From positions 1 through 64,000 of IMG/VR virus record IMGVR_UViG_3300031555_010392: 64,000 nt of DNA; one strand, 5' to 3'. The stretch is from a virus (Duplodnaviria; Heunggongvirae; Uroviricota; Caudoviricetes). The notes below the pieces were generated by a model. The model was not told the DNA's origin, did no database searches, and worked only from the letters and a program-made list of their open reading frames with translations. The position numbers were made by a program, and so were the translations under genes. This document shows positions 2,586 to 25,859 of this stretch, piece after piece (the stretch's first letter is position 1; every line of letters begins with the position of its first letter).

Positions 2586-5500
2586 TTGGAAACACTTGTC
2601 CTTTCGGTAATTAACTCCAGAGAACCATTGGGGTACACTTCATCGATTAGACAGACAGTGTGGCTAAAAATCGAGTCTGAATATTTCTTGGGGAAAAAAT
2701 TATCTCCGCGGCGAATGCCCGTAAGTAAGAGCTTTGTGCCACGAGTAAACCAAGATTTTTCAAGAATAGACTTGTCGCCTTCTTCGTTTACCGCAGAGAT
2801 CTGGCGGTTGTAATGCGCATAAGATCCCGCATAGAACTTAACTGTGACAACCCCATCGGGCGTTAAAAGTGTGACCGTATGCTTGTTATTATTTCTATCA
2901 AGCACTGTACCGATAATCCTGAAGAGGCGATAACGATTCCAAGTAAGATCTTCGCCAGTTTTGCGATCTGTTCGTTTTTCAACGGCTTCAACAATAGGGT
3001 CTTCAGGAAGTGAGGCAAAATTGGTAATTTGATAGGCTGAGCGATCTACGCCATCTAATTCATGTTTGGTGTAATAAAAAGACAAGCTGTCCATTTCCCA
3101 TTTTGCTTCATCACCACCGCAGTATTTTGCAAACTGCTCATTGATAAATCCTTCACGCATACGCTGATTAAAGGCAGACAATGTCGAGGGCGATTTGATC
3201 CAAGCGGTCATTTCTTCCGCAATGGATTTAAAGTGCTTTTCAAATTTTGCGTGGTATAAAACAGGGGTATCGTCATCATAAAAATAATCGACGCCCTCTG
3301 ACATAAATTTGAAAAGTTCGTTTTCAAAAAAGATTTGAGCCGTTTGGTCTAAACGGTAAGCCTTGGGTTTATTGGAGTATAGGAATTTTGGCTTGCAGAC
3401 GTAGCTTCTGAAATGCACCAAACGTTTTGCAAAATCAAATTTCTCTGGGAGGAAATTATTTAGACCAATTATGGCTGCAAAATTTTTGAAGTCTAAGCTC
3501 TTTTTATCTTCAACTTTCTGATGAGCAAGATAATTCATAAGCTCTAACATTTCTTCTGAGCGAGATTTTCCGCTAAGAGACTGAAAGCATCCGCCCTTCA
3601 CCAAAGTAATAAGAGCCGCCATTTTGATTTCAGGGTTTCTGGAGCAAAAATCTGTGATACTTGTATAGGGTCTACGTTCAATTATTTGCTTAACAATGTC
3701 ATCGCCTATGCCAACCATGCCTTTGAGACCAAAAATAATACGGTTATTAATGGCATCTGGCGTGAATCCGAAGCCACCGTGGTTGATATCAGGAAGAGCG
3801 ATCTGTACGCCCTGAGACTGCATATTGCCTATAGCGGAAGCGACTTTGCCATAGTTTGTGGATTTGTTATCGTCGTTATCTTCATTGGCGGAGGCATTGA
3901 CTGTGAGACATGCGGTTTGCCAATAAATATGCGGATAATGATGGAAGAGGTTCATTTCTTGAAGAGCAATGCAACTATAGGGGAGCGTATGATTTGAGGA
4001 GAATGAATACCCCAACTGAGGCGTCACATCGTATTTCCAAACATAATCAAGAAATTCTTTTCTTGTGCCAAGCTCAGCACCCTTCTTATAGAACAGCTCT
4101 TTGCTTTCAGTAACGAGCTTGGGCTTTTTCTTTGCAACGGCTTTACGGATCTTGTTAGCTTCTTGCATGGTGAAACCAGAAATTCGTGGGTCCATGCACA
4201 GCCGCATCAAATCCTCTTGCTCAATGGAACAAAGATAGTTTTCAGAAAGAATATCTTCAATAACTGCCATCTCATTTTCCGTTAGGCCAGCATCAACCAT
4301 TTCTTTTCTTCGCAATTCCGGGCTCTTCTTCATCATGACAAAATGATCAATAGGCACCATTACGTCATTACCCATAAGCCTCATCACGGAGTTGGTAAGG
4401 GAAAGCTCCTTCAGAGATTGAGGACGAACTTTTTTGATCGCTTCGCTCCCGACTGGAGTGTCCATTTGGAAAAGGTTATAAACCTTACCATCACTGGCTT
4501 CAGCCCACATATCAGGCGAATCATAATCCAATACATCTGGGTGGATATATTTATCATATGTCTTTTTAAGAGAGCCTTGCCATTCGATCTTTTTATCTTT
4601 CAACAGAAGTTCCAGACAAATCTGGATTTTATCGCAGCCTTCTACAGTTAGAAAGTCTTCTTTAAGGCCGGAGCAGGCTTCGCTGTCGCCCATATCCCAA
4701 GCGGTACAATCAAGCCCTTGAGGGGATTTCATGAGGCTGTTGTGCTCAATGTAAGGGGCGTTGTAAATAAACACAGAGCTTGCATGGATACCGCGTCCAG
4801 AAACAAGGCCTTCGATTTCTGCAATGGTTTCCATGAGCGAGGGATAGGCAGAAATACGATTGATCAATTCTTTAACAGGCTGATGCCCATTATCTTCAGT
4901 GCCCTCCTTACACTCTTTAAGCGTCCAAACTTTACCGCGGGTGATGGGGACAAGAGAGGAGAGCTCAGTTGCAATATCACTGTCGATATCCAAACCGCGG
5001 CAAGCAGTTTTGATTGCTGACTTCGTGGCTTCAGTCCTAAAAGTGATGGTATTTAAGCAACGATCTGCGCCAAAAACATACTTTACACGCTCTAAAATGG
5101 CCTCGCGTCTACTGGCGCACGAATCCAGGTCAACATCGGGGCAGTCTGGACGTGAAGCATGCAGATGCCTCCACGGAACCGTGCCCCATTTAATAGGATC
5201 AAGCTGGGTAATAGACATGAGATATCCTAAATACCAACCTCCCACAGAACCTCTTGCAACGCCTACAACGCTTTCATTATCAGGACGTCCGGGAGGAGTA
5301 AAAGCGCCGTTTTCATTCCACATGATTTGGACAATGAGCTGCGTGAGATTGTAATATGCGCTCATAGGTTGCCCAAGACGTTCAGAGACGCCCCATAGCT
5401 GTTCTAACTCATAATTAATGCGAGATAGATGAAGATCATCAAACGGGGCTTCTTTCTCCACCATTCCAATTTCAAGCTGCTTCATGAGCCAGAGATCCTG

Positions 5501-6532
5501 TGCCTCTGGACTGGAATAGTATTTATGGATATAAGGATATAATTCAGGATTCACATCCAAAGAACGATTTACGATAAACGGTTCCAATTTGCGTTGAGGA
5601 ACAATGGTGGGGTGAAACAGCCCATAATCCCCGGCATTTTTGCACATATCGGCAATCGCTAGAGTATTTAGAAAACCTGTCTCGATATCCTCAAGCGCCA
5701 AATCATCCTTCATGCGCTCAATCATTTCATCCGGCGTTTTAAGATAGGTGCTTTCATAAAAATCACCAGCTTCACGCTCTTCCTCGTGAGATTTCAAATA
5801 ATTCTCATGTAGGACACGCTTATCTTTTGACAAATAGTGGGCGTCATTTGTGATGATCCATTTAAGATCAAAATGCTTACAGAACTTAATTGCTCTGGTA
5901 TTAAACAATCTTTGGTCATCCGTGAGGCCAGGCTGAAGTTCAACAAAGAAGTTTTCTTTTCCAAACTGAGTCTGGCACCATGATACGAATTCATAGGCCC
6001 CCTTTACATCTCCCGCAAGGGTAAGCTTATCAAATTCTCCACCCAGACATGCTGTACTTGCCACAAGATGGCCGGGGTTTTTACCTACGATTTCTTCGAT
6101 ATCAGAATAAAAGGTTGGGAGCCTTTCGACGCCTTTGAAGGAATAACATCTACCCCAAGCTCTTGAAGAAAGCAATCGAAGTTGTCTATGTCCAATGGCA
6201 TCTTTGGCCAAAAGAACAAAATGATAAAAATGCCCACTTTCTATTGGGAAATATGTTTTTCCATTATCAGCGGTATATGGGTCACAATCATGGCAAAGAT
6301 AAATCTCATTCCCCAGTATCAATTGAAAATCAGGATTTGTTTTATGGATTTCTTTTAGGCAATTCAGAGCTTTGATATGGCCTGAAAGGCATTCGTGATC
6401 TGTGATAGAGATACCATGCAGCCCGATTTGAGCTGCATGGTTGATAAGTGCGCTTGTTTTATTGATACAATCAACAAGGTGGGTATTTGAATATTCTGTA
6501 TGAGCATGATGCTCGTGAAAGCGCTTATTCAT
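2582..6532 (-). CDS. dnaE: DnaE/PolC-family replicative DNA polymerase (PHP domain + Pol III alpha core), ~1316 aa
   Basis: N-terminal PHP motif HxHxEYSxxD...ITDH..L.G...GNE right after start; length ~1300 aa; start re-called to MNKRF (6532) 5 nt after a GAGGAGGA RBS; ORF-track N-extension has no RBS. Confidence 0.7.
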   Translation of the reverse strand: MNKRFHEHHAHTEYSNTHLVDCINKTSALINHAAQIGLHGISITDHECLSGHIKALNCLKEIHKTNPDFQLILGNEIYLCHDCDPYTADNGKTYFPIESGHFYHFVLLAKDAIGHRQLRLLSSRAWGRCYSFKGVERLPTFYSDIEEIVGKNPGHLVASTACLGGEFDKLTLAGDVKGAYEFVSWCQTQFGKENFFVELQPGLTDDQRLFNTRAIKFCKHFDLKWIITNDAHYLSKDKRVLHENYLKSHEEEREAGDFYESTYLKTPDEMIERMKDDLALEDIETGFLNTLAIADMCKNAGDYGLFHPTIVPQRKLEPFIVNRSLDVNPELYPYIHKYYSSPEAQDLWLMKQLEIGMVEKEAPFDDLHLSRINYELEQLWGVSERLGQPMSAYYNLTQLIVQIMWNENGAFTPPGRPDNESVVGVARGSVGGWYLGYLMSITQLDPIKWGTVPWRHLHASRPDCPDVDLDSCASRREAILERVKYVFGADRCLNTITFRTEATKSAIKTACRGLDIDSDIATELSSLVPITRGKVWTLKECKEGTEDNGHQPVKELINRISAYPSLMETIAEIEGLVSGRGIHASSVFIYNAPYIEHNSLMKSPQGLDCTAWDMGDSEACSGLKEDFLTVEGCDKIQICLELLLKDKKIEWQGSLKKTYDKYIHPDVLDYDSPDMWAEASDGKVYNLFQMDTPVGSEAIKKVRPQSLKELSLTNSVMRLMGNDVMVPIDHFVMMKKSPELRRKEMVDAGLTENEMAVIEDILSENYLCSIEQEDLMRLCMDPRISGFTMQEANKIRKAVAKKKPKLVTESKELFYKKGAELGTRKEFLDYVWKYDVTPQLGYSFSSNHTLPYSCIALQEMNLFHHYPHIYWQTACLTVNASANEDNDDNKSTNYGKVASAIGNMQSQGVQIALPDINHGGFGFTPDAINNRIIFGLKGMVGIGDDIVKQIIERRPYTSITDFCSRNPEIKMAALITLVKGGCFQSLSGKSRSEEMLELMNYLAHQKVEDKKSLDFKNFAAIIGLNNFLPEKFDFAKRLVHFRSYVCKPKFLYSNKPKAYRLDQTAQIFFENELFKFMSEGVDYFYDDDTPVLYHAKFEKHFKSIAEEMTAWIKSPSTLSAFNQRMREGFINEQFAKYCGGDEAKWEMDSLSFYYTKHELDGVDRSAYQITNFASLPEDPIVEAVEKRTDRKTGEDLTWNRYRLFRIIGTVLDRNNNKHTVTLLTPDGVVTVKFYAGSYAHYNRQISAVNEEGDKSILEKSWFTRGTKLLLTGIRRGDNFFPKKYSDSIFSHTVCLIDEVYPNGSLELITERTSVSN

Positions 6533-6782
6533 CGTCATCCTCCTCATGCTTGTCAAGCATTTCCTCGGCAACGCTGACAACGGAGGAATCGAAGAACCAA
6601 TGAATGACTGTATGCACAGCCAAACCTGTGCCAAACATACAGCATGCCACTCTCGTGAGCTCGGTTAAACATAAGATGGGGAATGCGGCAACAACACAAA
6701 TGCCGCAAATGATATCAAGAATGAAAACGAGACTGAGAAGTATTCCGATAGGGATCACTCCTTTTGATTGGCGTCTTGACAA
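6525..6782 (-). CDS. hypothetical small hydrophobic/membrane protein; start uncertain (TTG or internal)
   Basis: two hydrophobic stretches, acidic C-tail EEDDDE; stop overlaps polymerase start; no convincing RBS. Confidence 0.3.
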   Translation of the reverse strand: MSRRQSKGVIPIGILLSLVFILDIICGICVVAAFPILCLTELTRVACCMFGTGLAVHTVIHWFFDSSVVSVAEEMLDKHEEDDDE

Positions 6783-6946
6783 ATCAAATGAATTTTTTCA
6801 ATCAGAAGCTGTTCTTCTGCCGCAGAATATCGTTCTTCTCCGTTGTTTGCCACTCGTTCTGCCTGGATAGCTTTAATGAGAATATCCTGCATAGAACGAA
6901 TGGGGGAGATTTTGGTGCACTTACTTTCATTGTTGGCTTTACTCAT
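6755..6946 (-). CDS. hypothetical protein (63 aa)
   Basis: ORF in co-directional array; second ATG chosen for RBS spacing (GAAAGG). Confidence 0.35.
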   Translation of the reverse strand: MSKANNESKCTKISPIRSMQDILIKAIQAERVANNGEERYSAAEEQLLIEKIHLICQDANQKE

Positions 6947-6962
6947 AATATCCATCCTTTCT

Positions 6963-7193
6963 TTATTCGCAAAAACTTGAGTTACAAAAAGGACAATGGG
7001 TTATGTGCTGATTTCCAGCTTGAGTAATTGTGTAACCAACTAAGTTAGTTCGCCATTGAAGATATATATTCATGCCGCACCGCCAACATAGCCCTGTTAC
7101 AGGAGCAAAAAGAGGAAGGTTGTTGCGGTCGCAGTACAACTGCTGACGTTTGGAAGCTGTTTTGGGATCAAACTCTACCAAATGAATCACCAC
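6963..7193 (-). CDS. hypothetical Cys-rich protein (zinc-finger-like CxxC...HCPFC)
   Basis: C..C and H.C..C pairs; AGGTGG SD-like sequence; start ambiguous (GTG/TTG). Confidence 0.35.
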   Translation of the reverse strand: MVIHLVEFDPKTASKRQQLYCDRNNLPLFAPVTGLCWRCGMNIYLQWRTNLVGYTITQAGNQHITHCPFCNSSFCE

Positions 7194-8080
7194 CTAAAAG
7201 AAGCAATGACTTCTTGTTCTATCATGCTGGCGTCTTTGGTATCGGGATCCCATTCTTTGTTTGTGGCAAATGTTTTATTCGTAGGCGTCCAGAGGGAATA
7301 ATATGGGCAATAGTGCCTGAATTCTGGCTTGGCGTTGGGGTTTTGTGCGCAATATGGGCACCAATAGCATAGCGGTGTTGGAGAGGGCTCCCACGTATCT
7401 GAAGAAGTACATTCTTCAATGCTATCTAAGAGCTTATTCAACTTCTTTTCAGCTCGGCTAAGCCATCCTTTTGTGCCTCCCAGTCGCTGTTCACCAAGCA
7501 AAACAAAATCATACATATATTCGATGATTTCCATTTTGGGGTAAAGCTTTTGGCAGGCTAAATGGTAAATGTAAAGCTGAAGAGGAGTGGTAAGTTTTTT
7601 GGAATCATAAACAGCCTTAGAGGATTTATAATCCACGATGCGGAGCTGATCGTTATGGTTTTTTTGAACTTTATCGATCAGTCCGCGGATCCGAATGCCC
7701 GGTCTGATATCAAATTCAAATGGGACTTCAACACCTACGGTCGTCCATTCTGTGTCGTGTTCCTCATCTGGGAGATGCTCAAAGAAAATTTTAAGCTTCT
7801 GATCATAAGTAAGACCCGATTTGGTATCTGGAGCGATCCAGTCATCAAAGAACTTGATTTTGAGCTTGTCAACGCTTAAAATCACCTCTTTTTTGGCCTT
7901 TTCGCCTTCGTTGGACGCCTTATCTATGCCCTCCCAACCAGAGTGAAGGGTGATATCTTCAAGGGCTTTATAATCCGGTTTTTGGCCATTTAAGATAGCC
8001 TGTGAGCATAGTTCTTTGACTTTGTGAAGGAGATTGCCCATGGACAAAGCGAGCGTATCTTCTTCTGGATAATGTTGCAA
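7187..8080 (-). CDS. PD-(D/E)XK nuclease, Cas4/RecB-family exonuclease-like with C-terminal Cys cluster
   Basis: motifs GLIDKV (D), IVDYKSSK (D/E-x-K), QLYIYHLA (QxxxY), C-terminal CYWCPYC...C cluster typical of Fe-S Cas4/AddB nucleases. Confidence 0.65.
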   Translation of the reverse strand: MQHYPEEDTLALSMGNLLHKVKELCSQAILNGQKPDYKALEDITLHSGWEGIDKASNEGEKAKKEVILSVDKLKIKFFDDWIAPDTKSGLTYDQKLKIFFEHLPDEEHDTEWTTVGVEVPFEFDIRPGIRIRGLIDKVQKNHNDQLRIVDYKSSKAVYDSKKLTTPLQLYIYHLACQKLYPKMEIIEYMYDFVLLGEQRLGGTKGWLSRAEKKLNKLLDSIEECTSSDTWEPSPTPLCYWCPYCAQNPNAKPEFRHYCPYYSLWTPTNKTFATNKEWDPDTKDASMIEQEVIASFRW

Positions 8081-8190
8081 AATGTATTTGTGATAAAAAC
8101 TGAATGGACAGTTTTCAAATTGCGACAGCGCTGTATATGAATAGCGCTTTACCTTTAGTTCAACTTCACTTATGAAGGATCACCACCTTT

Positions 8191-8577
8191 TTAACCAGCG
8201 AGAATAACAGCGAAAGTAACGGCAATCTGGATCAGATGAGCAACCTGATCCTGCCAAAGATTAATGCAATGCTTATTGGCTTTCAGATCATCCACAATAA
8301 AGTGAATCAGTGTATTGATAATAAAGCCAACTACGAATAAGATGCCAACATCGCAATACACATATAAAGCAAGCGGGAGCATGATCATGAATGACCAGCT
8401 AAGGCTGTGCATCCACAGTGCCATAAGGTAGTCATTTTTATACAGGGAATCTGGCGCGTTTTTAACCCACCAGTCTTTCTGCTTCATCTGGGCAAGAACG
8501 CCCTGAAGAACATAGTCATCCAGCACATGCATGAAAACCATGCTCAAAAACACGAAAGGCAGACTAGGCATCATCAT
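8191..8577 (-). CDS. small integral membrane protein (DUF3307-like)
   Basis: 3-4 TM segments, HVLDDYVLQ motif; AAGGAGG RBS 10 nt upstream of MMMPSLP. Confidence 0.5.
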   Translation of the reverse strand: MMMPSLPFVFLSMVFMHVLDDYVLQGVLAQMKQKDWWVKNAPDSLYKNDYLMALWMHSLSWSFMIMLPLALYVYCDVGILFVVGFIINTLIHFIVDDLKANKHCINLWQDQVAHLIQIAVTFAVILAG

Positions 8578-9908
8578 GAATAGCTGACCTCCTTGCCCGT
8601 TTCACGCAATTCCTTAAAGACAGGGAAACGCAAGGATAGATTGCCATCGACATCATGGGTTTCCTCAAAATACTGGACAGAGATCACGCGGCCAATAAGC
8701 TCATCGCGCATTTCCCAAAAACGAATTCGGTCAGTATAAGTATAGCCAGAACCAACACCAAGCTTATTGCCCTTATAATCCACGATAAAGGCACCAAGCT
8801 TACCAGTATTCGCGCCTTTACCTTCTTCATAGCCAATGATTTTCAAATCGCAATCCTGCATGACTTTAACCTTGAGAAGATTCTTGGTACGTTTACATTC
8901 ATAAGGAGCGCCATTGATGTTGATCATGATACCTTCTTGATTAACTTTTCTTGCTTGTTCAAGAAAAACCATGATTTGGTCAGTATCATAGCCTGCGTAA
9001 AGCACAGGAAGTACACGCAAGTGTTCAAAATCCGTAGCACATTCGAGAACCATTCTTCGATTTATATAAGGCTGGTCACATCTGCCAAATTGGAAATCTT
9101 CTAAGGGAAGGATGTCGAAAACATGATAAGTAACGCCATGCTTTTCACCTTTGGAGCGGACAACTTTTGTGGTTCGCTTATAACCCTCAGCGCTTGTGAG
9201 TTCATGAGCGTTATCAACAAGCAGCTCTCCATCCAGCACCCATCCATCCTCATCGTTTTTAAACCACTCGCGCATATCTGCTTCAATTTCGACAAGGCCT
9301 TCAATAGGCTGGCCCTGACGGGAGTAAAAAGTCACTTTGCCATTATTATAAATGCCAAGGCAGCGAATGCCGTCCAGCTTTTGTGTGAGCGTAAAAGACT
9401 TGTCCATCATCACAAACTCAGGATGTTCAAAATACTTCTCTGCAAGCATGCAGCCAAAAGTAGGAATGAAGTTTTTACCATAGACCTTATTAAGAGTCGT
9501 GGCAGTAACACCAATCTTGCAGTCCTTGCACATGAACTGACCAAGGAAGTCTGCAAGTTCTGAGTTAATCAGACGGATTTGGCTAATAATTGCCTGTAAA
9601 TCTGCAATCATAAGATTTGTTGCTGCAGGGGCTTTCTTGAAATAGGAACATAGAGCCCATAGATCTGGCAAATACGTTCTTGAGCAAAATTTGTCTGTTA
9701 ATACTACAGATTTATTCAACTTTGCAGTGCTTAGGCCATAAATGATATAAGGATTATATTGCTGGTAAAGGGCCTCTTTTACTGACCCATCAAGAGCATC
9801 GCGATAATTAGCGAGAACAGCGAGCTTTTCTTTGCCTGTTGCAGAAGCGATTTTTTCAAAAGCTTCTTTAATATGGAGGAGTTCTTCAATAGCCGCTTGA
9901 TTAAACAT
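8574..9908 (-). CDS. ATP-dependent DNA ligase
   Basis: motif I KLDGIRC (KxDGxR), motif III WVLDGELLV, motif IV EGIMIN, motif V LLKVKV; start re-called to MFNQ (9908) with GGAGGG RBS 8 nt upstream. Confidence 0.85.
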   Translation of the reverse strand: MFNQAAIEELLHIKEAFEKIASATGKEKLAVLANYRDALDGSVKEALYQQYNPYIIYGLSTAKLNKSVVLTDKFCSRTYLPDLWALCSYFKKAPAATNLMIADLQAIISQIRLINSELADFLGQFMCKDCKIGVTATTLNKVYGKNFIPTFGCMLAEKYFEHPEFVMMDKSFTLTQKLDGIRCLGIYNNGKVTFYSRQGQPIEGLVEIEADMREWFKNDEDGWVLDGELLVDNAHELTSAEGYKRTTKVVRSKGEKHGVTYHVFDILPLEDFQFGRCDQPYINRRMVLECATDFEHLRVLPVLYAGYDTDQIMVFLEQARKVNQEGIMININGAPYECKRTKNLLKVKVMQDCDLKIIGYEEGKGANTGKLGAFIVDYKGNKLGVGSGYTYTDRIRFWEMRDELIGRVISVQYFEETHDVDGNLSLRFPVFKELRETGKEVSYS

Positions 9909-10566
9909 TGACAACGCCCTCCAATGCCTTGAAATTAAACTCCAGCATTTTTCGACTTGCCAGATGATCCGCCAAATGGACAAGCTTACAAAGCCAATCG
10001 CCCATTGTTGGGTTGGGTAAAATAAGAGAGCTATGCTTTGAAACCGTCCATCTGCCCATATGAGTGATAACCGCATTTGCCGCTGATTCAATAATCATAG
10101 CGGCTTCAGACGGTAAAAGCGTATTATGCAGCTCTCTATATTTCTGAAGCGCTGTCAAAAGAAAATCTGAAGCGAGAAGAGGATGCTCGTGAACAGTGTG
10201 GTTGTTAGGCGGGAGCTCAGATGACGAGGAATCAGGTGGGCCAGATTTAAAGCAATCATGTACAAGAAGCGCCAGCAATCCAGCGTCTGTAAAATCTGTG
10301 TTTACTACCATGCAGTCCTGCTGATACCACGAGGTAACACCGGGGGAAACAAATGAATAAAAGATATTCATAGCGGCTCTTGTGTGGCGGATAAGGCCAC
10401 CTTCACCAAGAGCATAGGATGGATGGTATTTCCCAGAAGAAGACGCAGGAATATGAAAGAAGTACTCCGGCATATTCTCTAGACAAAAAAGAGCGAAGTT
10501 ATAAACATCCCCATTTAAAATCAAATTGACTTCAGGGAATAAAGCGATTCTTTCATCAGGTGTCAA
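9901..10566 (-). CDS. HD-domain phosphohydrolase
   Basis: LVHDCFK (HD) plus conserved H...H...D (HLADHLAS); TTG start after GAGGTGA. Confidence 0.55.
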   Translation of the reverse strand: MTPDERIALFPEVNLILNGDVYNFALFCLENMPEYFFHIPASSSGKYHPSYALGEGGLIRHTRAAMNIFYSFVSPGVTSWYQQDCMVVNTDFTDAGLLALLVHDCFKSGPPDSSSSELPPNNHTVHEHPLLASDFLLTALQKYRELHNTLLPSEAAMIIESAANAVITHMGRWTVSKHSSLILPNPTMGDWLCKLVHLADHLASRKMLEFNFKALEGVVNV

Positions 10567-10570
10567 AACA

Positions 10571-11668
10571 TCACCTCATACTATTAGTCGTTATTTCAAA
10601 TTTTTCTTTCATAAGTTGTTCGAGTACTTCTTTGCCACGGTCGGTCGGCGCATCTTTATACTGCAATAGATCTTTGCTGTCCCAAAGCACATAGGTAGTT
10701 GCATAGGGGGTGAAAAGCCCCGCAAGTTTAAGGATTTTGTTTGCGTAGGAATCGCTTTCTTCGGAATATGCGGCATGATACTCTTTATCAAAAGCAAGGA
10801 ACACTTCTTTTACCCCAAGGCTAACGATCATATCTCTTTGAAATGTAGAGATATTAGAACCACAGACCGCTACGCCAAAGCTATCTTCTCCATAAAATGA
10901 AGAGCATTGCAATGCCAGCTTTTCGCTTTCGCCTAAAAGAATTTTGGAATACTTTTGAACAGCTGGTTTCACCTTATCAAGGCCGTAAAGATTGTAGCGG
11001 AGAGTGTGGCGGTAGTCTTTTTGACCTATCCGGGTTGGAATATACTTAAAACCAGCCGCAACAGCTTCTTCATCAAGACATCTGGAGCGTATCCCGATCA
11101 AATTGCCAAGATGATCATAATGCGGAATAATGATTTCTTTACGGCTGACATCAAAGCGGATATTGAAACGTTCACATGCCTCGTGAGTAATGCCCTCGTG
11201 CATCCATTCTGCAGGAGTTACCCGTGGATAAAGGTCTAATAGACCATGAGGCAAAGGAGTATATGTCGGCGGAGGGGGCGGCTGCTGAGAAAGACCAAGT
11301 ATTTGAGAATAACGATCAAGTATTTCCCAATCATCAGTGATCTTTTGCTCAAATCCTATCTTTTGCCCAAAAGAAATCCCAAGAGTTTGCTGGACATAAT
11401 CCAGCGCTTGTCCAAAATTACAATGAAGAACGCGCTTGACAAGCTCATAAATATCAAAGCTTTCGCCACATTGAGTGTAGCAATGGAACAAGCCGCTCTC
11501 CTGATAATAAAAGAGCTTGTAGCTTCCGGTATGTGCGGGGTTATGACAAATGGTCTGAAAAATCAAATCACCATTCGCTGTAGCTCTAGGAGGGTCACTG
11601 CCTAAAGCTGTGACCAGTTTAATGATTTCAGGGGTTGAAAATGAACGCTCAAACTGCGTTCTGATCAT
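10571..11668 (-). CDS. DNA primase (DnaG-like: CHC2 zinc finger + TOPRIM-like region)
   Basis: CHNPAH...HCYTQCGESF zinc-binding CHC2-type motif near N-term; acidic TOPRIM-like LGESEK / AFDKE; AAGGGGTGA RBS. Confidence 0.6.
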   Translation of the reverse strand: MIRTQFERSFSTPEIIKLVTALGSDPPRATANGDLIFQTICHNPAHTGSYKLFYYQESGLFHCYTQCGESFDIYELVKRVLHCNFGQALDYVQQTLGISFGQKIGFEQKITDDWEILDRYSQILGLSQQPPPPPTYTPLPHGLLDLYPRVTPAEWMHEGITHEACERFNIRFDVSRKEIIIPHYDHLGNLIGIRSRCLDEEAVAAGFKYIPTRIGQKDYRHTLRYNLYGLDKVKPAVQKYSKILLGESEKLALQCSSFYGEDSFGVAVCGSNISTFQRDMIVSLGVKEVFLAFDKEYHAAYSEESDSYANKILKLAGLFTPYATTYVLWDSKDLLQYKDAPTDRGKEVLEQLMKEKFEITTNSMR

Positions 11669-11681
11669 TTTGATTCACCCC

Positions 11682-14315
11682 TTACCAGACAAAGGTTTCG
11701 GGGTCGGTATTCACGGGCTTTTCTTCCTCAGTTTCGTCAAGGATGGTTTCAATACTGGTGTTTTCCACATCCAAACGTTTATAATTGCGGTCAGTTACAA
11801 AAAGATCAGTCGTGCGGAGAGTGGCATAATCAAAATGAAGAAATAGTTTTACATGGTTGAGCTTGCCACGTCTGACTTTATAGATGTGATATACAAGATT
11901 AGGCGGTTTGTAGAACGCCTGAGCCATAATGGATTTTGTGGCTTCAAGATCTTTTTCTGTCGGCTCAAGAACTACATAGCCAATATCGACTTTGTCCGCT
12001 ATACCCTTAGCACCGCGAATGAGACTTTGATCAGGATCCTTGCAATTCTTCCAGTCGCCGCTCGCCTGAGTGGATGTATCGATATGGATATTCAATCGAT
12101 TGCAAAGAGATTTCATGCGATCAGAGAACATAACGAGCACATTATCTTCACGAATGTTGACGCCTCTGGTTTTTTGTGCGATCTCCATAAGGATCTTGGT
12201 AGAAGAAAAGATGTAGTCAAAGTAGAGATGAGAGATCATATGCTTGCGCTTATAGGTACAGGCTAGATTCTCAATGTCGTCTACATTGAACTGAGGGATA
12301 TGTTCGATCCACAAAGGAGCCTCGGAAACGATTTGGATTGCTTTATCTACACGTTCTTCTTCGCCGGGAGCATATTTGCCATCGAGGATATGTTCTTCAG
12401 GCACGCATGCAACATAGGCAAGGATCATGGTTTGAACTTCTTCTGGTTCAAGCTCAGTGGTGATGTAGAGGGTTGGTTCGGCGCATTTGGTTTTTACCCA
12501 ACGTTTAAGATCGGGGTCATAATACTTTGAAATGGCGCCTAGGCAAGCATCTGAAAGAGAAAGGCGGGTGTTGTGAGTGACGATGTAGTCAGAACTCACA
12601 TACAACGCATCTTCGTTATCGACTGTAAGGCAAGTCATATCTACATATCGGTCTGTAGGAATGATGTCTACAATGGCGTTGTAATCCTTATAAGAATCTC
12701 GATGAGATCTTGCTGCATACGCTTCAGCAATTGTTTTTTTCCTGGGAAGCTTAAACAGACTGGGCTTTAATGCGCGTGGACACTGAATGTATATTACGAA
12801 ACAAACGCCGGACTTATACTTTGCTCTATTATCGAGTCCGGGGACGGCAGTCAGGCCAAGGCTTCTACAAAGGGACAGCATACAATCCTTCATTGTAAGG
12901 CTTGTTGTTGTGAAAGAAATTCTCCCCTTGTTTTCACTGTCGATATGGCCGTCTGTATCCAACAGCCCACGCAGCAACTCGAAGCGTTGCTCTACTGAGC
13001 CCATGAGATAGTCGCCAGGGATATATTTTTCTTCCGAGTATGCACCAGATAGATTAGGATATTGTGCGACTATATCTGCCACATGAATATTTTTACCATC
13101 CTTCTTAAAATAGTAAGAGTAATTGTTGCAATTAGGTTTGATTACATCCCATTTCATTACTTCGCCAATATGGGTGGGGAGGATACTATCTTCTGAAGAA
13201 TAATAAAAAGTATTGCTTCGCTCGCTTGTTCTAAAGCTTCCGTCCCCCAAAAATAGCCCCATAATGTAAGGGGGAATCAAAAATTCTTTTTCTGGATGTT
13301 GGACGGGCTGGCACAAAGGAACTCTGCATTTAAAAGTGCCTCCAACGCCCTCTCTCCAATGCCCAGAATAGCGCTCTAAAATTTGAGCCGTTGTTTCTAC
13401 GCGATATAATTCGGGATTGTGTCGGTCATAATAGTAAAACCAAAGATGATCATCGCTACATTCATGCATACGACCATCGTAAAACTTAACTTCGTATACA
13501 CGTTTTTTATGTGGTTGATGATGCACGGCAAGAACTTTCGTAGGCTTGCCATCTCGGCCAAGCAAAACATCGCCTGGTACCATATCTCCAATTGCTTTCC
13601 ATCCCTGATCATATGTTGGAATCATCGTATAATCAGGGGCACATTTTCCTAGGCCCGAGGGCGCCGTCCTCAGATAAAACTTCTTAAGTCTTCGGCCTCT
13701 GCAAATGGTAGTAAGCTTTTTGGAGTTCATTGGCGCTCCCATCTCAGGACGCTCCATGAGAGACTTTTTCAGCTCTACCATACCTTCGGCAGCCTGTCCA
13801 CCAACTCGTCCGCCAACGTTGGAAAATTCGCTTTTGATTTCAGACAGCTTTCCTTCATAAAAAGCGAAGATGTCTTCAAGTGAACTATTATCCAGCTTTT
13901 CTCTGGCAATCTTCTGTACAGATGGGTCTGCAGAAGTGTTATTGTAATACTCGCCAACATCAATGCCAGCCTTCACCAGCTTATTCAGAAGAGAATACTT
14001 TTTAAGTGTTTTATAATGAAGGGTAAAGTTGCCATCCGCCATCGTATTGATCAGTGCATTGATATAAGCCTGACCACCATTAGTGGTGAACAGATGGTAG
14101 TGTTCTGGATAATTGGAAATATACTCATCAATGGACATGACGTTGATATTTTCCGCGCCATTCAGAGACAAATTAGCAATAGCCGTAAAGACGATTTTAT
14201 GAAAACGCTCAGGAAAATCATCGGGCGTTAAATGAAAACGTTCGTCCATAAACAAATACGGATTTTTGATAAGCTCTCCAAGGACATGGAGAGTAACAGC
14301 TTTATCTTGAATCAA
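11682..14315 (-). CDS. dnaB: DnaB-family replicative helicase precursor containing an intein in the Walker A loop
   Basis: N-domain aligns with DnaB (AVTLHVLGEL...DDFPERFHKIVF); P-loop APSGLGK|C...intein...HN|TRLSL reconstitutes GLGKT; C-terminal TELEPEEV and FDYIF match DnaB; TTG start. Confidence 0.8.
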   Translation of the reverse strand: MIQDKAVTLHVLGELIKNPYLFMDERFHLTPDDFPERFHKIVFTAIANLSLNGAENINVMSIDEYISNYPEHYHLFTTNGGQAYINALINTMADGNFTLHYKTLKKYSLLNKLVKAGIDVGEYYNNTSADPSVQKIAREKLDNSSLEDIFAFYEGKLSEIKSEFSNVGGRVGGQAAEGMVELKKSLMERPEMGAPMNSKKLTTICRGRRLKKFYLRTAPSGLGKCAPDYTMIPTYDQGWKAIGDMVPGDVLLGRDGKPTKVLAVHHQPHKKRVYEVKFYDGRMHECSDDHLWFYYYDRHNPELYRVETTAQILERYSGHWREGVGGTFKCRVPLCQPVQHPEKEFLIPPYIMGLFLGDGSFRTSERSNTFYYSSEDSILPTHIGEVMKWDVIKPNCNNYSYYFKKDGKNIHVADIVAQYPNLSGAYSEEKYIPGDYLMGSVEQRFELLRGLLDTDGHIDSENKGRISFTTTSLTMKDCMLSLCRSLGLTAVPGLDNRAKYKSGVCFVIYIQCPRALKPSLFKLPRKKTIAEAYAARSHRDSYKDYNAIVDIIPTDRYVDMTCLTVDNEDALYVSSDYIVTHNTRLSLSDACLGAISKYYDPDLKRWVKTKCAEPTLYITTELEPEEVQTMILAYVACVPEEHILDGKYAPGEEERVDKAIQIVSEAPLWIEHIPQFNVDDIENLACTYKRKHMISHLYFDYIFSSTKILMEIAQKTRGVNIREDNVLVMFSDRMKSLCNRLNIHIDTSTQASGDWKNCKDPDQSLIRGAKGIADKVDIGYVVLEPTEKDLEATKSIMAQAFYKPPNLVYHIYKVRRGKLNHVKLFLHFDYATLRTTDLFVTDRNYKRLDVENTSIETILDETEEEKPVNTDPETFVW
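12570..13643 (-). mobile_element. intein (358 aa) with LAGLIDADG homing-endonuclease domain inserted in dnaB P-loop
   Basis: starts Cys (CAPDYTMIPT, TGT at 13643-13641), ends His-Asn followed by Thr (VTHN|T, AAC at 12572-12570); two LAGLIDADG motifs IMGLFLGDGSF and LLRGLLDTDGHI. Confidence 0.75.
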
Positions 14316-14343
14316 TTCTGTTTTGGGTATTGTAAATCACCAC

Positions 14344-14862
14344 CTAAACATCTTCCATTCGGAATACACAGGGGAGAGGAGAAGGCTTGGTCTGATAAGG
14401 AAGTACAACAGCTTCATCCTGAACAACAACGCTTTTGTTATATTCATTGGCTTCATTGGAAAGTGACCAAAAAGCAAGCGCTTCATCATAGATATAGGGG
14501 ACAATACCGATGGAAGGAGATTCCGGCTCTGGTATATTGTTGGGCAGGATATCAAAGAAATACCGCAAGGACAAAAGAATGTTTTTATAAGAATACCCAC
14601 GTTGAGTATGAAAATCATTGATTTGCTTATTTAGCAATGGACTTAAACAGGACAGGCCATACAAAGAATAAACATAACTGTCAAGCTCATCCCGATCGGG
14701 ATCCATGCGAACCATAGATGCAGAAGCCTTCTTTTGATCTTTTGCTTTTGCCGCGGCTTTGATTTCTTCTAAGCAAGCTGCGTGATAATTCTTGGAGCGA
14801 TATTTAACGTTTTGTCCACTAAGAATAGCGTTTCCGCATTTTGCACAAATCATACCGTGCAC
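14344..14862 (-). CDS. hypothetical protein with N-terminal zinc ribbon (CAKCG...HAAC)
   Basis: ORF in array; CxxC...HxxC N-terminus. Confidence 0.45.
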   Translation of the reverse strand: MHGMICAKCGNAILSGQNVKYRSKNYHAACLEEIKAAAKAKDQKKASASMVRMDPDRDELDSYVYSLYGLSCLSPLLNKQINDFHTQRGYSYKNILLSLRYFFDILPNNIPEPESPSIGIVPYIYDEALAFWSLSNEANEYNKSVVVQDEAVVLPYQTKPSPLPCVFRMEDV

Positions 14863-15089
14863 CGCCTAGCAAGGCCAACATGTTTGTAAACGGCTGAAAA
14901 GGCCTCTTCTAAGGTTGCATAATCAGAAAGATTACCAACTTCAGTAAAAGACCACATACCTATTTCTGCTTCTTCGCCATCCTCCGTAACAATGTCCAAA
15001 AATCCGCCTCGTTTTTCTTTTTTTACGTAGCAAGGGAAAAAGGTGTTAAATTTAACGGAGCCGTGATATCCAATGGTGTTTTTATACAT
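14850..15089 (-). CDS. hypothetical protein (79 aa)
   Basis: AAAGGGGAA RBS upstream of ATG. Confidence 0.45.
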   Translation of the reverse strand: MYKNTIGYHGSVKFNTFFPCYVKKEKRGGFLDIVTEDGEEAEIGMWSFTEVGNLSDYATLEEAFSAVYKHVGLARRCTV

Positions 15090-15108
15090 TGCGCTTTCCC
15101 CTTTGCGG

Positions 15109-15143
15109 GGTCGGGGAGTGTTACCCCGACCCCAATATTTTTT
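15109..15143 (+). terminator. terminator-like GC hairpin + T7 tract oriented for the plus strand inside the minus-strand block
   Basis: GGGTCGGGG agtgtta CCCCGACCC (9-bp stem) followed by aatattttttt on plus. Confidence 0.35.
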
Positions 15144-16177
15144 TAAAGCTTCAAATCCTTCAGATCGGAAAGGATAACTTCCAAAATCTGTGCCTGCTCA
15201 GGCTGAGCATCCATAACGCCCTTACCCTTGCCAAGATAAGACTCGATGAGGGCTTTATACTCCTCGATACGGCCAGCGGCGTTCATCTTAAGTGCGATCT
15301 CCTTGATTGCTTCCTGAAGCTCAGCAAAAGTAGGAGCGGGAGCATCTGTAAAAGGAGCCTGCTGTTCAGCAAAGGTTACAGGCGCGGCACCATCCAGCTC
15401 AAGCTGCTTGCGCTTTGCTTCGATAATAGCGGCACAAAGCTTTTCAGCAGTGACCTGTTCAATGTAAGGAACAATCTGCGTATAACGAGAACGAGTATGA
15501 TACTGCGTATTGGGGGCGAAATAAATCGTGGAGAACACAGTGCGGCCATTCTCATCAACGGGGGCGGCTCTCATATAACCAATGACATCCACATCGTTGC
15601 AGATGGGCTCAATAGCACGCTTATCGCCGGAAGGATACATCTTGGTATACTTCTGCTGAGTGCGGGGGTCTACCTCATCGCGATAGCCGCCGTCATGCGC
15701 GATATACACAAGGGTGAAGCCAGCAAGGCGGAGGGCACGAGTGGCACGGCGGAACTCACGGCCAAACTCGGTGTAGGCATTTACGGAGCCGTCCTTCTTG
15801 CCATCAACGGTATAGCGGGTTTCGCCGAGAGACTGGATACCAAGCTTTGCGCAGACAAAATCGATACAATAGTCAGCCATAACATCAACCGTATCAAGAA
15901 TAATGGTCTGAGCGACTTCGTGTGCTTCAGCGGTGGTCGCAGGGGAAGTGGCCCACTTGACAAAAGCGAGGAAATCCTTCCAGCTCTTCATGGGATAATA
16001 CTGCTTGCCCTGCATACCCGTAATACCACTTTCAAATGCAAGGTAGTAAGACTTTGGCATGTTGACTGCGACAGGGGTCTTACCAGTGCCATTAGCGCCC
16101 CAAATAAGGATAGCTACACCTTCAAGATCGCTGGTGATCTGAGAAACAGGAGGCTTGCCAAAATGATAATCTGCCAT
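15143..16177 (-). CDS. AAA_24/Sak4-like RecA-fold ATPase (recombination mediator-like)
   Basis: N-terminal Walker A GANGTGKT, Walker B-like IILDTVD, size 344 aa, position next to putative SSB. Confidence 0.5.
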   Translation of the reverse strand: MADYHFGKPPVSQITSDLEGVAILIWGANGTGKTPVAVNMPKSYYLAFESGITGMQGKQYYPMKSWKDFLAFVKWATSPATTAEAHEVAQTIILDTVDVMADYCIDFVCAKLGIQSLGETRYTVDGKKDGSVNAYTEFGREFRRATRALRLAGFTLVYIAHDGGYRDEVDPRTQQKYTKMYPSGDKRAIEPICNDVDVIGYMRAAPVDENGRTVFSTIYFAPNTQYHTRSRYTQIVPYIEQVTAEKLCAAIIEAKRKQLELDGAAPVTFAEQQAPFTDAPAPTFAELQEAIKEIALKMNAAGRIEEYKALIESYLGKGKGVMDAQPEQAQILEVILSDLKDLKL

Positions 16178-16198
16178 TCCATTTACCTTCTTTCGTAA

Positions 16199-17158
16199 TT
16201 AATAAGAGAAATCATTGATCTTTGCCATAGCCGCGGCATTGTTGTTCATGGGCATTGCGGGGGCAGTTACAGGAGTCATAGCAGGAGACCCATTCTTACG
16301 CTCCTTAGCCATGATCCTGGGGATGGTTTCGTTATTGCGGACAGCCAAAGCAGCCATAATCGTTTCACGAGAGTAGGACTTGACGTCTTCTTCGGAATAG
16401 GGATTCCAGCCGCCCATGATTTCCAGTTCATTGATATAGGTGCGAGCCTCCATCTTGCGGCCAATGCCAGCCTGATTAGAGGTGGTGACATGCACGGTGT
16501 TGATCAGGTCGCCATTAAGCATGGCCGTCTGGCCAACCTCGTAGGTGTTTTCAAAATCTGCAGCAAGATTCTTGCCGACAACGAACCTCTGAGGCAGGAT
16601 CGCACCGCGGTACATGGGCACATATACATCGACGAGCTTTCGTCCGGTTTCTTCGCTATTCACAATCTCATCAGTGATCTTATCGATATAGCATTCAACC
16701 TCAAAAGTAGCGCAGGGATTAAAGTCAGTATCTACTCGATTGAAATAATTGCTGGAAATAGACACGCGGCTGACAAAGCCATTCTGGCCGTTATACTCAT
16801 TACGTCCAAGGGTGGCGTTAGTGACGGATACCTTTGTGCACTGGGCCATAGCAGTCGCAAGATCGTAGCCCTTTTCAAGTAGAGAAGCCATATCCACATA
16901 TTCATTCATCACAGTTACAATACCGGGATAAGCCTTGTTTTCCTTAAGTTCACCTGTATTGGAATCCTTGATATACTGAGCGGCATACACGTTGATTTCA
17001 TGATCTGCTGCGGGGGGAATGTGAAGCTTTAGAGAGCCACGGATAACGGGGTGATTGTTCTGGTCTGATACGAGTTTCAGATCCATTTCCTTAAGATAGC
17101 CTGTAATTCTTACACGATTCATAGCCTGGCGAAGAGTAGTATTATTCTGATTTTCCAT
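16199..17158 (-). CDS. hypothetical protein, possible ssDNA-binding protein (OB-fold-like N-terminus)
   Basis: N-terminal NRVRITGYLKEMDLKL resembles SSB OB-fold start; genomic context; weak. Confidence 0.3.
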   Translation of the reverse strand: MENQNNTTLRQAMNRVRITGYLKEMDLKLVSDQNNHPVIRGSLKLHIPPAADHEINVYAAQYIKDSNTGELKENKAYPGIVTVMNEYVDMASLLEKGYDLATAMAQCTKVSVTNATLGRNEYNGQNGFVSRVSISSNYFNRVDTDFNPCATFEVECYIDKITDEIVNSEETGRKLVDVYVPMYRGAILPQRFVVGKNLAADFENTYEVGQTAMLNGDLINTVHVTTSNQAGIGRKMEARTYINELEIMGGWNPYSEEDVKSYSRETIMAALAVRNNETIPRIMAKERKNGSPAMTPVTAPAMPMNNNAAAMAKINDFSY

Positions 17159-22436: not shown

Positions 22437-22517
22437 TGGGGATAATGGGACTTGAACCCATACGCCGTTTGGCACCAGATCCTAAGTCTGGCGCGTCTGC
22501 CATTCCGCCATATCCCC
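22437..22517 (-). tRNA. tRNA-Leu(TAG): tRNA-Leu (anticodon TAG), type II with long variable arm
   Basis: 7-bp acceptor GGGGATA/TATCCCC, anticodon arm CCAGA-CTTAGGA-TCTGG, variable hairpin GCC-AAAC-GGC, T-arm ATGGG-TTCAAGT-CCCAT. Confidence 0.75.
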
Positions 22518-22528
22518 TTAAGAAAAAG

Positions 22529-22603
22529 TCGAGGTGGTGGGATTCGAACCCACGCTCTCCACATCCCAAATGTGGCGGGATAGCCAAACTTCCCTACACC
22601 TCG
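22529..22603 (-). tRNA. tRNA-Pro(TGG): tRNA-Pro (anticodon TGG)
   Basis: acceptor CGAGGTG/CACCTCG, anticodon arm CCACA-TTTGGGA-TGTGG, T-arm GTGGG-TTCGAAT-CCCAC. Confidence 0.75.
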
Positions 22604-22608
22604 ATAAA

Positions 22609-22766
22609 TAGCGATGGTGGGATTCGAACCCACGATGGCGCCTATGGCGCGAGAATTATTCAGTAAGACACCTTACAACTTAGCACCTTGGCCTTGAGCG
22701 CAGTTCTGCTACTACCCTTACTGAGATCGCGACTCTTCTCTGCTTCGTCCACTTACATACATCGCC
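22609..22766 (-). other. tRNA-like element: perfect T-arm + acceptor 3' strand at 22609-22640 pairing with GGCGATG at 22760-22766; ~158 nt, not a canonical tRNA
   Basis: GTGGGTTCGAATCCCAC T-arm identical to neighbouring tRNAs; no recognisable D or anticodon arm between; GCGCC-ATA-GGCGC hairpin before T-arm. Confidence 0.25.
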
Positions 22767-22956
22767 GATGCCCGTACTCTTACAACCGGCGGCTTAGGCA
22801 GAAGAAAGTGCTCTGTGAAGTAGATTCTTCTGCTTTATGAGCCACCCAGGCATGGTATAGAGCTTTTGTTTATCGGTACTCACAGGTACTCTAACCACCG
22901 TGTTTTCATTTCGCTTCAGCATTTACGCATTGGCAAGGAAAAACATAAACCTCTGG

Positions 22957-23028
22957 GCGCGGGAGATGGATTTGAACCATCGATCTTCAGCTCATGAGGC
23001 TGACGAGATACCACTTCTCTATCCCGCA
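22957..23028 (-). tRNA. tRNA-Met(CAT): tRNA-Met (anticodon CAT), CCA encoded
   Basis: anticodon arm TCAGC-CTCATGA-GCTGA, T-arm GATGG-TTCAAAT-CCATC, 3' ...TCCCGCG-C-CCA; 1:72 is T:G. Confidence 0.65.
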
Positions 23029-23203
23029 ATGTGGTGGCTCTACGGGCGAGGCCGTGCATGACCTCTATATGAGAGATTTCATCAGGCTATCTTCTTGGCG
23101 TTTCTATCAACGTCTATTAATGCACGCCAGTTGCGATCTGGCTGTGGCCAATATTTTTACCTGACTACTTGCGCACATATACTGCACTACCCATAGAGCG
23201 TGG

Positions 23204-23276
23204 TGGGACTGAGGGGAGTCGAACCCCTGGCACCCTGATTAAAAGTCAGGTGCTCTGCCAACTGAGCTACAATCCC
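23204..23276 (-). tRNA. tRNA-Lys(TTT): tRNA-Lys (anticodon TTT), CCA encoded
   Basis: GGGATTG TAGCTCAGTTGGCAGAGC ... CCTGA-CTTTTAA-TCAGG ... GGTTCGACTCC. Confidence 0.8.
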
Positions 23277-23353
23277 ATGTTGTCTCGGATTACGCGCCGA
23301 GTCGCGAGGTGCTGCGTGATAAGGAGCGTCGCAATTATGTGCCTTTCGGCTGG

Positions 23354-23435
23354 TGCGGCTGGTGGGATTCGAACCCACAATCCCATAGGGCGGGAGATTT
23401 TAAGTCTCCTGCATATGCCGTTCTGCCACAACCGC
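23354..23435 (-). tRNA. tRNA-Leu(TAA): tRNA-Leu (anticodon TAA), type II, CCA encoded
   Basis: anticodon arm GGAGA-CTTAAAA-TCTCC, long variable arm, T-arm GTGGG-TTCGAAT-CCCAC, A73. Confidence 0.7.
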
Positions 23436-23441
23436 ATGTAA

Positions 23442-23514
23442 TACCACGGGTGGGATTCGAACCCACAAACGCCTGATTTTGAGTCAGGATGATATGCCAA
23501 TTCTCTACCGTGGC
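23442..23514 (-). tRNA. tRNA with anticodon CAA (Leu codon UUG) but short type-I variable arm; identity uncertain
   Basis: acceptor GCCACGG/CCGTGGT (G1:U72), anticodon arm CCTGA-CTCAAAA-TCAGG, 5-nt variable CGTTT, T-arm GTGGG-TTCGAAT-CCCAC, A73. Confidence 0.5.
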
Positions 23515-23520
23515 ACGATT

Positions 23521-23550
23521 GTGGCTTCCTTTCGGTAACGACGAGCCACG
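23521..23550 (-). other. inverted repeat GTGGCT...AGCCAC hairpin just downstream of the SPFH gene (possible terminator/processing site)
   Basis: gtggcttcctttcggtaacgacgagccac; no U-tract. Confidence 0.25.
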
Positions 23551-23564
23551 CGCCGGTAAAATCA

Positions 23565-24479: not shown

Positions 24480-24688
24480 TCAACAGTCTCCTTTGTTCCA
24501 GTTGGGTTATTAAGTCCATGAGAATTTTCTTCTGATATGGAAGAAGCAGTTGTGGGTTTGTCATCCATGTTATCCCGTGCATCTTTCCATAAGCGATGAG
24601 CCAAGCGGCCAAGAGGTCGGTATAGACACGAGAAGAGGAGCCACACGAGCGCAAGCCCGAGGATGACGAGAAAATAGAATACAGGCAT
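24476..24688 (-). CDS. small membrane protein, likely partner of the SPFH protein (NfeD-like role)
   Basis: MPVFYFLVILGLALVWLLFSCLY TM helix; overlaps SPFH start by 4 nt. Confidence 0.4.
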   Translation of the reverse strand: MPVFYFLVILGLALVWLLFSCLYRPLGRLAHRLWKDARDNMDDKPTTASSISEENSHGLNNPTGTKETVE

Positions 24689-24825
24689 TTGTTCTCCTTT
24701 CAAAAAGAATAAATAACCCCAGCGTCCGTAGAACATCGTATGCATCCGACTGGTTTCTAACGTACACAGAAGCAAGGTAATTACTCCCCACTGCTTATGC
24801 CGTCATACTACCAACTGGGGGCTGG

Positions 24826-24899
24826 CGAGCGATTAGGGATTTGAACCCCAGACCTACGGCTTAGAAGGCCGTTGCTCTATCCGACTGAGCTAATCGCCC
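24826..24899 (-). tRNA. tRNA-Arg(TCT): tRNA-Arg (anticodon TCT), CCA encoded
   Basis: GGGCGAT TAGCTCAGTCGGATAGAGC ACGGC-CTTCTAA-GCCGT ... GGTTCAAATCC. Confidence 0.8.
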
Positions 24900-25110: not shown

Positions 25111-25122
25111 ATATTGGCTGAA

Positions 25123-25770: not shown

Positions 25771-25859
25771 TGACTGACTATTAGCGGCAATCTGTGCAAG
25801 CTCTTCTTTTGAATAACGATCAACTAGTGCAGCTATCTTACGCGCCCCCCATTAAAAAG

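Follow-up and report, generated by a model that had tools for sequence, protein, structure and literature searches.

The question raised by this locus is what a run of 358 codons is doing inside the nucleotide-binding loop of a phage helicase, and how the helicase could be made whole in spite of it. The window, by which we mean the whole stretch of 64,000 nucleotides (nt) that was analysed, comprises positions 1 to 64,000 of the IMG/VR virus record IMGVR_UViG_3300031555_010392 (Caudoviricetes). Its DnaB-like helicase gene is interrupted in frame, between the Lys and the Thr of the Walker A motif, by a segment of 1074 nt (exactly 12570..13643) that encodes residues 225-582 of the precursor (Table 1). 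An earlier sequence-only reading had taken this segment for an intein with a LAGLIDADG homing endonuclease. Profile matches, a structure model, an intein-less allele and a gap-free alignment with the helicase YorI of phage SPbeta support that reading, and we consider it very probable that the segment is a class 3 intein, mobile and equipped with a LAGLIDADG homing endonuclease, seated in the P-loop of a YorI-type helicase of an SPbeta-like phage.

Translation reproduces all the coordinates and quoted residues of the earlier reading. The precursor runs LRTAPSGLGK, then from CAPDYTMIPT through 358 amino acids (aa) to SSDYIVTHN, then TRLSLSDA. The open reading frame (ORF) is there as described; its location on the minus strand had escaped that reading. 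Excision of residues 225-582 yields a 519-aa protein with Walker A restored to APSGLGKT, confirming the GLGKT that had been predicted, and the insert and exteins are equal in GC content (42.6% and 42.9%). A 519-aa protein in the databases, P0001, is 99% identical to the spliced product over its full length. Its DNA, L001, matches the spliced coding sequence of the window at 1500 of 1560 nt (96%), with a single gap that corresponds to 12570..13643 to the base. Because L001 lacks exactly these 1074 nt, the boundaries of the insert are fixed independently of any motif. The spliced protein also retrieved two 855-aa proteins, P0002 and P0003, which carry an insert each and whose exteins are 98% identical to the window protein; inserts are carried by just 14 of the best 120 helicase clusters. 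L002 and L003, used below, are DNA of intein-bearing helicase genes.

Within the insert, Pfam finds LAGLIDADG_3 (E-value 6e-9, 36.5 bits against a cut-off of 22.5) and Hom_end (23.2 against 21.1), both above gathering, and PHROGs matches the insert to an intein-bearing terminase family (E 2e-42). Given these endonuclease matches, the terminase family match and a 99%-identical protein without exactly 1074 nt, the insert is not a chance pattern. The Pfam intein models Intein_splicing and Hint_2 gave no match on the insert at E <= 1, and NCBIfam gave a faint intein-related match only; the class 3 splicing domain was identified through PHROGs, PDB sequences, structure and alignment. An AlphaFold2 model built with a 26-sequence alignment has a mean predicted local distance difference test score of 93.9 and a predicted TM score of 0.92. 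Foldseek against the PDB places PI-SceI first (E 3e-17, TMq 0.70), followed by the TliVMA, PI-PfuI and PhoVMA inteins. For the splicing half alone, the best matches are the class 3 inteins MchDnaB-1 and MsmDnaB-1 (34-36% identity, root-mean-square deviation 2.4 Å), and a sequence search of the PDB names the same two as closest partners. As modelled, the insert has a HINT plus LAGLIDADG fold, with HINT matches that include 6riy, 6bs8 and domain I of PI-SceI. No second intein was found in the window by tblastn with the intein as query.

Contiguity of the extein halves with DnaB homologues, on which the earlier reading had staked its case together with the splicing blocks considered below, is borne out by the natural intein-less allele and by alignment. 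In the spliced protein DnaB_C (PF03796) forms one contiguous match that spans junction 224/225, residues 197-472 pairing with profile positions 5-250 of 255; it scores 45.7 bits against a cut-off of 27, and the DnaB N domain (PF00772) scores 32 bits against 23. YorI of SPbeta, which has no intein, aligns end to end (504 aa, 38% identical, E 7e-133). The alignment runs ungapped through the junction (RTAPSGLGKTRLSLSDAC against RSSITGGGKTRNMVADAC) and pairs the TTG start of the precursor with Met1. PHROGs assigns the spliced protein to DnaB-like helicases (PHROG 19, E 5e-46), and the genes around it lie in the SPbeta order yorF, yorG (AAA_24), yorH, yorI, yorJ. The NCBIfam DnaB equivalogs are not reached (61 against 385 bits for TIGR00665, bacterial DnaB; 39 against 499 for TIGR03600, phage DnaB), and phmmer of the spliced helicase against the PDB gave weak DnaB matches only, none spanning the P-loop. 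Judged by these alignments, the helicase is a divergent YorI-type member of the DnaB family. Its closest isolated relatives, in Bacillus phages of the SPbeta/phi3T type, are just 37-38% identical, and a nucleotide search of the helicase gene against 50,697 phage records returned no match, the phage being absent from that collection.

Comparison of alleles bears on how the insert came to be there. Between the window and L003 the inteins are 92.9% identical at the nucleotide level, and 100% identical over 13049..13148, whereas the exteins are only 85-88% identical. The number of synonymous changes per synonymous site (dS) is 0.34 in the intein and 0.24 in its endonuclease part, the lowest of the gene, against 0.91-1.13 in the exteins; by dS (0.34 against about 1), the host gene is the older of the two. 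A short flank moves with it. In the last 16 nt of the N-extein, 8 positions differ between the window and L001, and with the Thr+1 codon the count is 9 of 19 nt, so that 9 of the 60 window/L001 differences lie from -16 to +2 about the junction, the densest 19-nt interval of the gene. The window reads CCCTCGGGCCTAGGAAAA then ACC and L001 reads CCAAGTGGGGTTGGCAAA then ACT, and L003 equals the window at all nine (Fisher p = 7e-9). The nine changes in L001 are synonymous or conservative. The flank and the Thr+1 codon presumably mark a short co-conversion tract and part of the homing site. The window genome looks like an L001-type background that was given the intein and a short flank by gene conversion, and the opposite event, in L001, is also possible as the origin of the flank difference. 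The lower age of the intein and the flank that moves with it both point to recent homing.

Further helicases suggest that the site is a busy one. Near-identical exteins hold very different inteins (extein/intein identity 99/68% for P0002/P0003, 99/49% for P0014/P0015 and 96/63% for P0093/P0098), which suggests intein replacement or partial gene conversion at the helicase site. The extreme C-terminal intein segment is identical in some of these pairs. P0070, a helicase with 63% identical exteins, holds an unrelated 304-aa class 1 intein (Cys1, VYDFTV block F, SHN then T) at exactly the same GK/T site; two classes of intein have thus entered this site independently of each other.

Whether the endonuclease still cuts is the point at which the most serious competing account enters, namely that the intein splices with an endonuclease that is no longer active, its spread being confined to vertical descent and to the ordinary homologous recombination of co-infecting phages. 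To place the window copy among its relatives, we use a HMMER scan of 1.84 billion representatives for the intein family (16,733 clusters at E <= 1e-3, of which 1,059 reach E <= 1e-30), with residue statistics from the best 150 representatives, which contain 169 complete domains. Both LAGLIDADG motifs named by the earlier reading are present, and the acidic residues that close them are kept (LFLGD134G and LLDTD231G). Asp134 is retained in the window, where many relatives have Asn; the D-K-D combination occurs in 117 of the 169 related domains and N-K-D in 16. Two close relatives, P0054 and P0110, have shrunken endonuclease domains. The family thus appears to be in the usual cycle of endonuclease decay, with an apparently intact copy in the window. 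The ratio of nonsynonymous to synonymous changes (dN/dS) between the window and L003 is 0.045 for the intein and 0.07 for the endonuclease part, and the intein is under purifying selection. An inactive endonuclease would fit the decay common among relatives, both by loss of the first catalytic Asp to Asn and by domain shrinkage, and also the shortness of the flank held in common (~19 nt). It fits poorly with the retention of Asp134, Asp231 and Lys206, with a dN/dS of 0.07 combined with the lowest dS of the gene, and with a sequence change centred exactly at the insertion point. We regard this account as unlikely, and a mobile intein with a working endonuclease as the better explanation.

The next question is how the intein would splice. 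Class 3 inteins are recognized by the WCT triplet of Trp B:12, Cys F:4 and Thr G:5 (PMC2807308). The Cys at F:4, where class 1 inteins have Asp (PMC2807308), is the class 3 nucleophile; it makes the first attack and gives rise to a block F branched intermediate (PMC2807308, PMC5222942, PMC6195587). The majority of class 3 inteins lie in the P-loops of helicases and terminases (PMC2807308, PMC5222942, PMC6195587), and a nucleophile at the N-terminus is "not required" (PMC5222942). As the sequence-only reading had anticipated, blocks A, B, F and G are all present in the insert, and they are conserved in the 26 aligned relatives, where H66 and W68 are invariant and C338, T356, H357 and N358 are at least 90% conserved. 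The window intein has both the WCT triplet (W68, C338, T356) and Thr+1. When it is compared with 13 helicase homologues that carry a homologous intein at GK, then T/S, His B:10, Trp B:12, Cys F:4 (in a D/E-M-T-C motif) and Thr-His-Asn at G:5-7 are invariant throughout. Residue 1 in the same 13 is Ala in ten, Ser in two and Cys in one (P0002), and the window has Cys.

The wider family repeats this pattern. H-W-C-THN is found in 160 of the 169 related domains and THN by itself in 165; the +1 position holds Thr 135 times, Ser 30 times and Cys 4 times. In the 97 domains whose N-end is reliable, the first residue is Ala 78 times, Cys 8 times and Ser 4 times. At least two inteins of this family occur in 35 of 134 representative proteins. 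One of these proteins is P0177, in which a second WCT intein appears to start at the +1 residue of the first (IVTHN then C...). Because the W68, C338 and T356 signature is held across relatives while residue 1 varies between Ala, Ser and Cys, we infer class 3 splicing chemistry for the window intein, with the internal Cys338, and not Cys1, as the likely initiating nucleophile. The leading Cys of the earlier reading is indeed residue 1; as an obligate nucleophile it probably does not hold, relatives starting mostly with Ala. Cys1 would then be a minority state, within class 3, of a position that is not required. The original class 3 criterion also includes a non-nucleophilic residue 1, which the window copy, with Cys1, lacks.

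A functional intein on the canonical class 1 route, with Cys1 making the first thioester and Cys338 in a structural or auxiliary role only, is distinctly improbable in our view. It would draw on Cys1 in the window and in P0002, on the fact that class 1 splicing requires no more than Cys1, a +1 nucleophile and a terminal His-Asn, and on a codon path from Ala (GCN) through Ser (TCG, L002) to Cys (TGT/TGC), among near-identical host genes, that suggests a regained nucleophile. Set against this, Trp B:12, Cys F:4 and Thr G:5 are kept family-wide irrespective of residue 1, the Asp at F:4 and the Thr at B:7 of class 1 are both missing, and WCT inteins with Ser1 or Cys1 are already on record (3 of 37; Tori et al., PMC2807308). 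A more speculative idea, to which we give little weight, is that the lineage regained an N-terminal Cys and now has a dual class 1/class 3 route, or that a disulfide between Cys1 and Cys338 (or Cys62) acts as a redox switch gating helicase maturation. If true, such a switch would make the maturation of the helicase, and through it the replication of phage DNA, depend on the condition of the host cell. The Cys at B:6 (Cys62, 13458..13460) is kept in 127 of the 169 related class 3 inteins, and B:6-B:7 is Cys-Cys in most close relatives as against Cys-Ser in the window intein (Ser63, 13455..13457). Since a Cys48-Cys118 disulfide has been reported for Msm DnaBi1 (PMC6195587), a redox or structural role for the B:6 Cys is conceivable by analogy.

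With class 3 chemistry and a working endonuclease, the proposed cycle would run as follows. The precursor would be unable to bind ATP because its P-loop is split. After translation, Cys338 in block F would attack the Lys224-Cys1 peptide bond to give a branched thioester, the N-extein would be handed to the hydroxyl of Thr+1, cyclisation of Asn358 would release the intein, and an O-to-N shift would leave an intact GLGKT loop and an active helicase. The released intein would be a site-specific endonuclease (Asp134, Asp231, Lys206) that cuts intein-less yorI-like alleles of co-infecting phages, and repair would copy the intein and a few flanking bases into the cut allele.

Several points weigh against this interpretation. 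The role as a replicative helicase is drawn from family membership and synteny, with scores far under the NCBIfam DnaB equivalog cut-offs. Cys1 departs from the original class 3 definition, which makes a class 1 or mixed route possible in the window copy, and block B:7 is Ser where most close relatives have Cys. The flank common to the window and L003 could stem from ordinary recombination rather than from endonuclease-driven repair. L001 is known from a 1.8-kb metagenome contig only.

Two further explanations fare much worse. That the intein has decayed and no longer splices, leaving the helicase gene a pseudogene or its product inactive, is very unlikely. There is precedent in non-splicing class 3-like inteins such as Arth_1007 of Arthrobacter (PMC3196547). 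It was nevertheless rejected on the intact state of every catalytic position, on strong purifying selection in the intein and both exteins (dN/dS 0.01-0.05), and on an arrangement that is also kept in the L003 lineage, whose extein DNA is ~15% diverged; nor was a second DnaB-like gene seen in the surrounding replication module. LAGLIDADG genes are frequent residents of group I introns, and such introns occur in SPbeta-type phages, but a free-standing or intron-encoded gene inserted in the helicase gene is hardly credible here and was rejected, since the frame runs on without a stop codon, HINT blocks lie on both sides of an endonuclease whose fold is that of intein endonucleases, and Rfam finds no intron in the whole window.

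Table 1. Coordinates of the helicase precursor gene, the intein and their parts in the window
Feature	Position	Strand	Basis or remark
Precursor coding sequence, DnaB/YorI-like replicative helicase with intein	11682..14315	minus	877 aa, TTG start; Pfam DnaB N, DnaB_C, LAGLIDADG_3, Hom_end
N-extein, residues 1-224, last residues APSGLGK (Walker A)	13644..14315	minus	635/672 nt identical to intein-less L001
Intein, 358 aa, Cys1 to His357-Asn358; predicted class 3 HINT splicing domain with inserted LAGLIDADG domain	12570..13643	minus	profiles, alignment, AlphaFold2, Foldseek, L001 gap
C-extein, residues 583-877 and stop codon; first residue Thr+1 = Walker A Thr	11682..12569	minus	865/888 nt identical to L001
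Block A (CAPDYTMIPTYDQ), N-terminal splice junction	13605..13643	minus	residue 1 Cys here, Ala in most relatives
Block B (GRMHECSDDHLWFY): His66 (B:10), Trp68 (B:12, first of WCT triplet), conserved Cys62 (B:6)	13434..13475	minus	
Block F (DMTCLTVDNEDALYVS): Cys338 at F:4, codon 12630..12632	12594..12641	minus	
Block G and residue +1 (DYIVTHN then T): Thr356 (G:5), His357, Asn358, Thr+1	12567..12590	minus	
LAGLIDADG homing endonuclease domain, ~residues 113-315	12699..13307	minus	Pfam, alignment to PI-SceI residues 300-454, fold match
First LAGLIDADG motif (YIMGLFLGDGSF), residues 126-137, putative catalytic Asp134	13233..13268	minus	
Second LAGLIDADG motif (LLRGLLDTDGHI), residues 223-234, putative catalytic Asp231	12942..12977	minus	pairs with FLAGLIDSDGYV of PI-SceI
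Lys206, aligned to PI-SceI Lys301	13026..13028	minus	at least 90% conserved in 26-sequence alignment
N-extein flank moving with intein, 18 nt (CCCTCGGGCCTAGGAAAA), with Thr+1 codon ACC (12567..12569)	13644..13661	minus	identical in window and L003
Junctions without intein: L001-type GCGCCAAGTGGGGTTGGCAAA, then ACTCGCCTTTC; window-type spliced GCGCCCTCGGGCCTAGGAAAA, then ACCCGCCTTTC			

The gene lies in an SPbeta-like replication module on the minus strand (255..17158) that holds a YorF-like protein, an AAA_24/YorG-like protein, a YorH-like protein, the intein-bearing helicase and a YorJ-like primase, and further on an uncharacterised 221-aa protein, an ATP-dependent DNA ligase, a PD-(D/E)XK nuclease, a 1350-aa Pol III alpha and a RecD2-like helicase. 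Elsewhere in the window, 14 tRNA genes (Leu x3, Pro, Met x2, Lys, Arg, Gly x2, Gln, Ser, Ala, Thr), called by ARAGORN and Rfam, lie on the minus strand at 22437..27581 with small ORFs between them, and Rfam found no other RNA family over the window. A region of ~5 kb (40100..45400) has no ORF of at least 150 aa, many ORFs of 50-140 aa on both strands and no RNA family match, and looks like a block of small phage genes. Within 56000..64000 the GC skew is -0.28 at 56-58 kb and rises to values of +0.18 to +0.26 at 58-64 kb, coinciding with a turn of the ORFs from mostly minus to plus strand.

For annotation, the helicase proper is the 519-aa spliced product, and the 1074-nt segment should be recorded as an intein, neither as part of the helicase nor as a separate gene. 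The locus cleanly illustrates the homing cycle in nature, in a group of uncultured SPbeta-like phages: the site is empty in one allele, occupied and bordered by a short co-converted flank in another, and filled elsewhere by a divergent intein or by an unrelated one of class 1, and in some relatives the endonuclease is decaying. It leaves the current understanding of inteins unchanged. Full-length, endonuclease-bearing class 3 DnaB P-loop inteins would now extend past actinobacteria and their phages, and the Cys1 variant could help to dissect the relation of class 3 to class 1 chemistry.

The insertion point, between the Lys and the Ser/Thr of Walker A, is the "classic" P-loop intein site (PMC5050341), and Msm DnaBi1 occupies the same site of DnaB (PMC6195587). 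The mycobacterial DnaB-b inteins (Msm DnaBi1, 6bs8; Mch DnaB-1, 6rix/6riy; Mle DnaB) resemble the window intein in their DnaB-family host, in a P-loop site where the Walker A Ser/Thr is residue +1, and in the WCT triplet and His B:10, and they are the best sequence and structure partners of its splicing domain (E 4e-9, 34-36% identity). They are mini-inteins of ~140 aa without endonuclease, begin with Ala, have Ser+1 and reside in a cellular chromosome, whereas the window intein has 358 aa and an apparently intact LAGLIDADG domain, begins with Cys, has Thr+1 and resides in a phage. Closer in build is the MP-Be DnaB intein of mycobacteriophage Bethlehem, the class 3 prototype, which likewise sits in a phage DnaB-type helicase, with 341 aa and Thr+1 (PMC2807308). 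Likened by published positions, its His65, Trp67, Cys320, Thr339 and Asn341 correspond to His66, Trp68, Cys338, Thr356 and Asn358 here; unlike the window intein, it has a non-nucleophilic residue 1 and an actinophage host. PI-SceI of yeast VMA1 also combines HINT and LAGLIDADG, is the top whole-chain structural match (TM 0.70) and aligns at the second motif and at Lys301, but it is a class 1 intein of a eukaryotic V-ATPase, with 454 aa, an extra DNA-recognition region and only ~15% identity to the window intein. Homologous class 3 inteins (28-43% identity) also occur in the P-loops of PhoH-like ATPases and of the large terminase subunits of phages; they share the position after the Walker A Lys (PMC5050341), the WCT triplet and THN then T/S, differing in their host proteins and in starting mostly with Ala. 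Class 3 DnaB inteins of mycobacteria and their phages are thus already known. Specific to the present case are the uncultured SPbeta-like phage host, a full-length and apparently active endonuclease, Cys1, and a set of alleles that appears to document recent movement.

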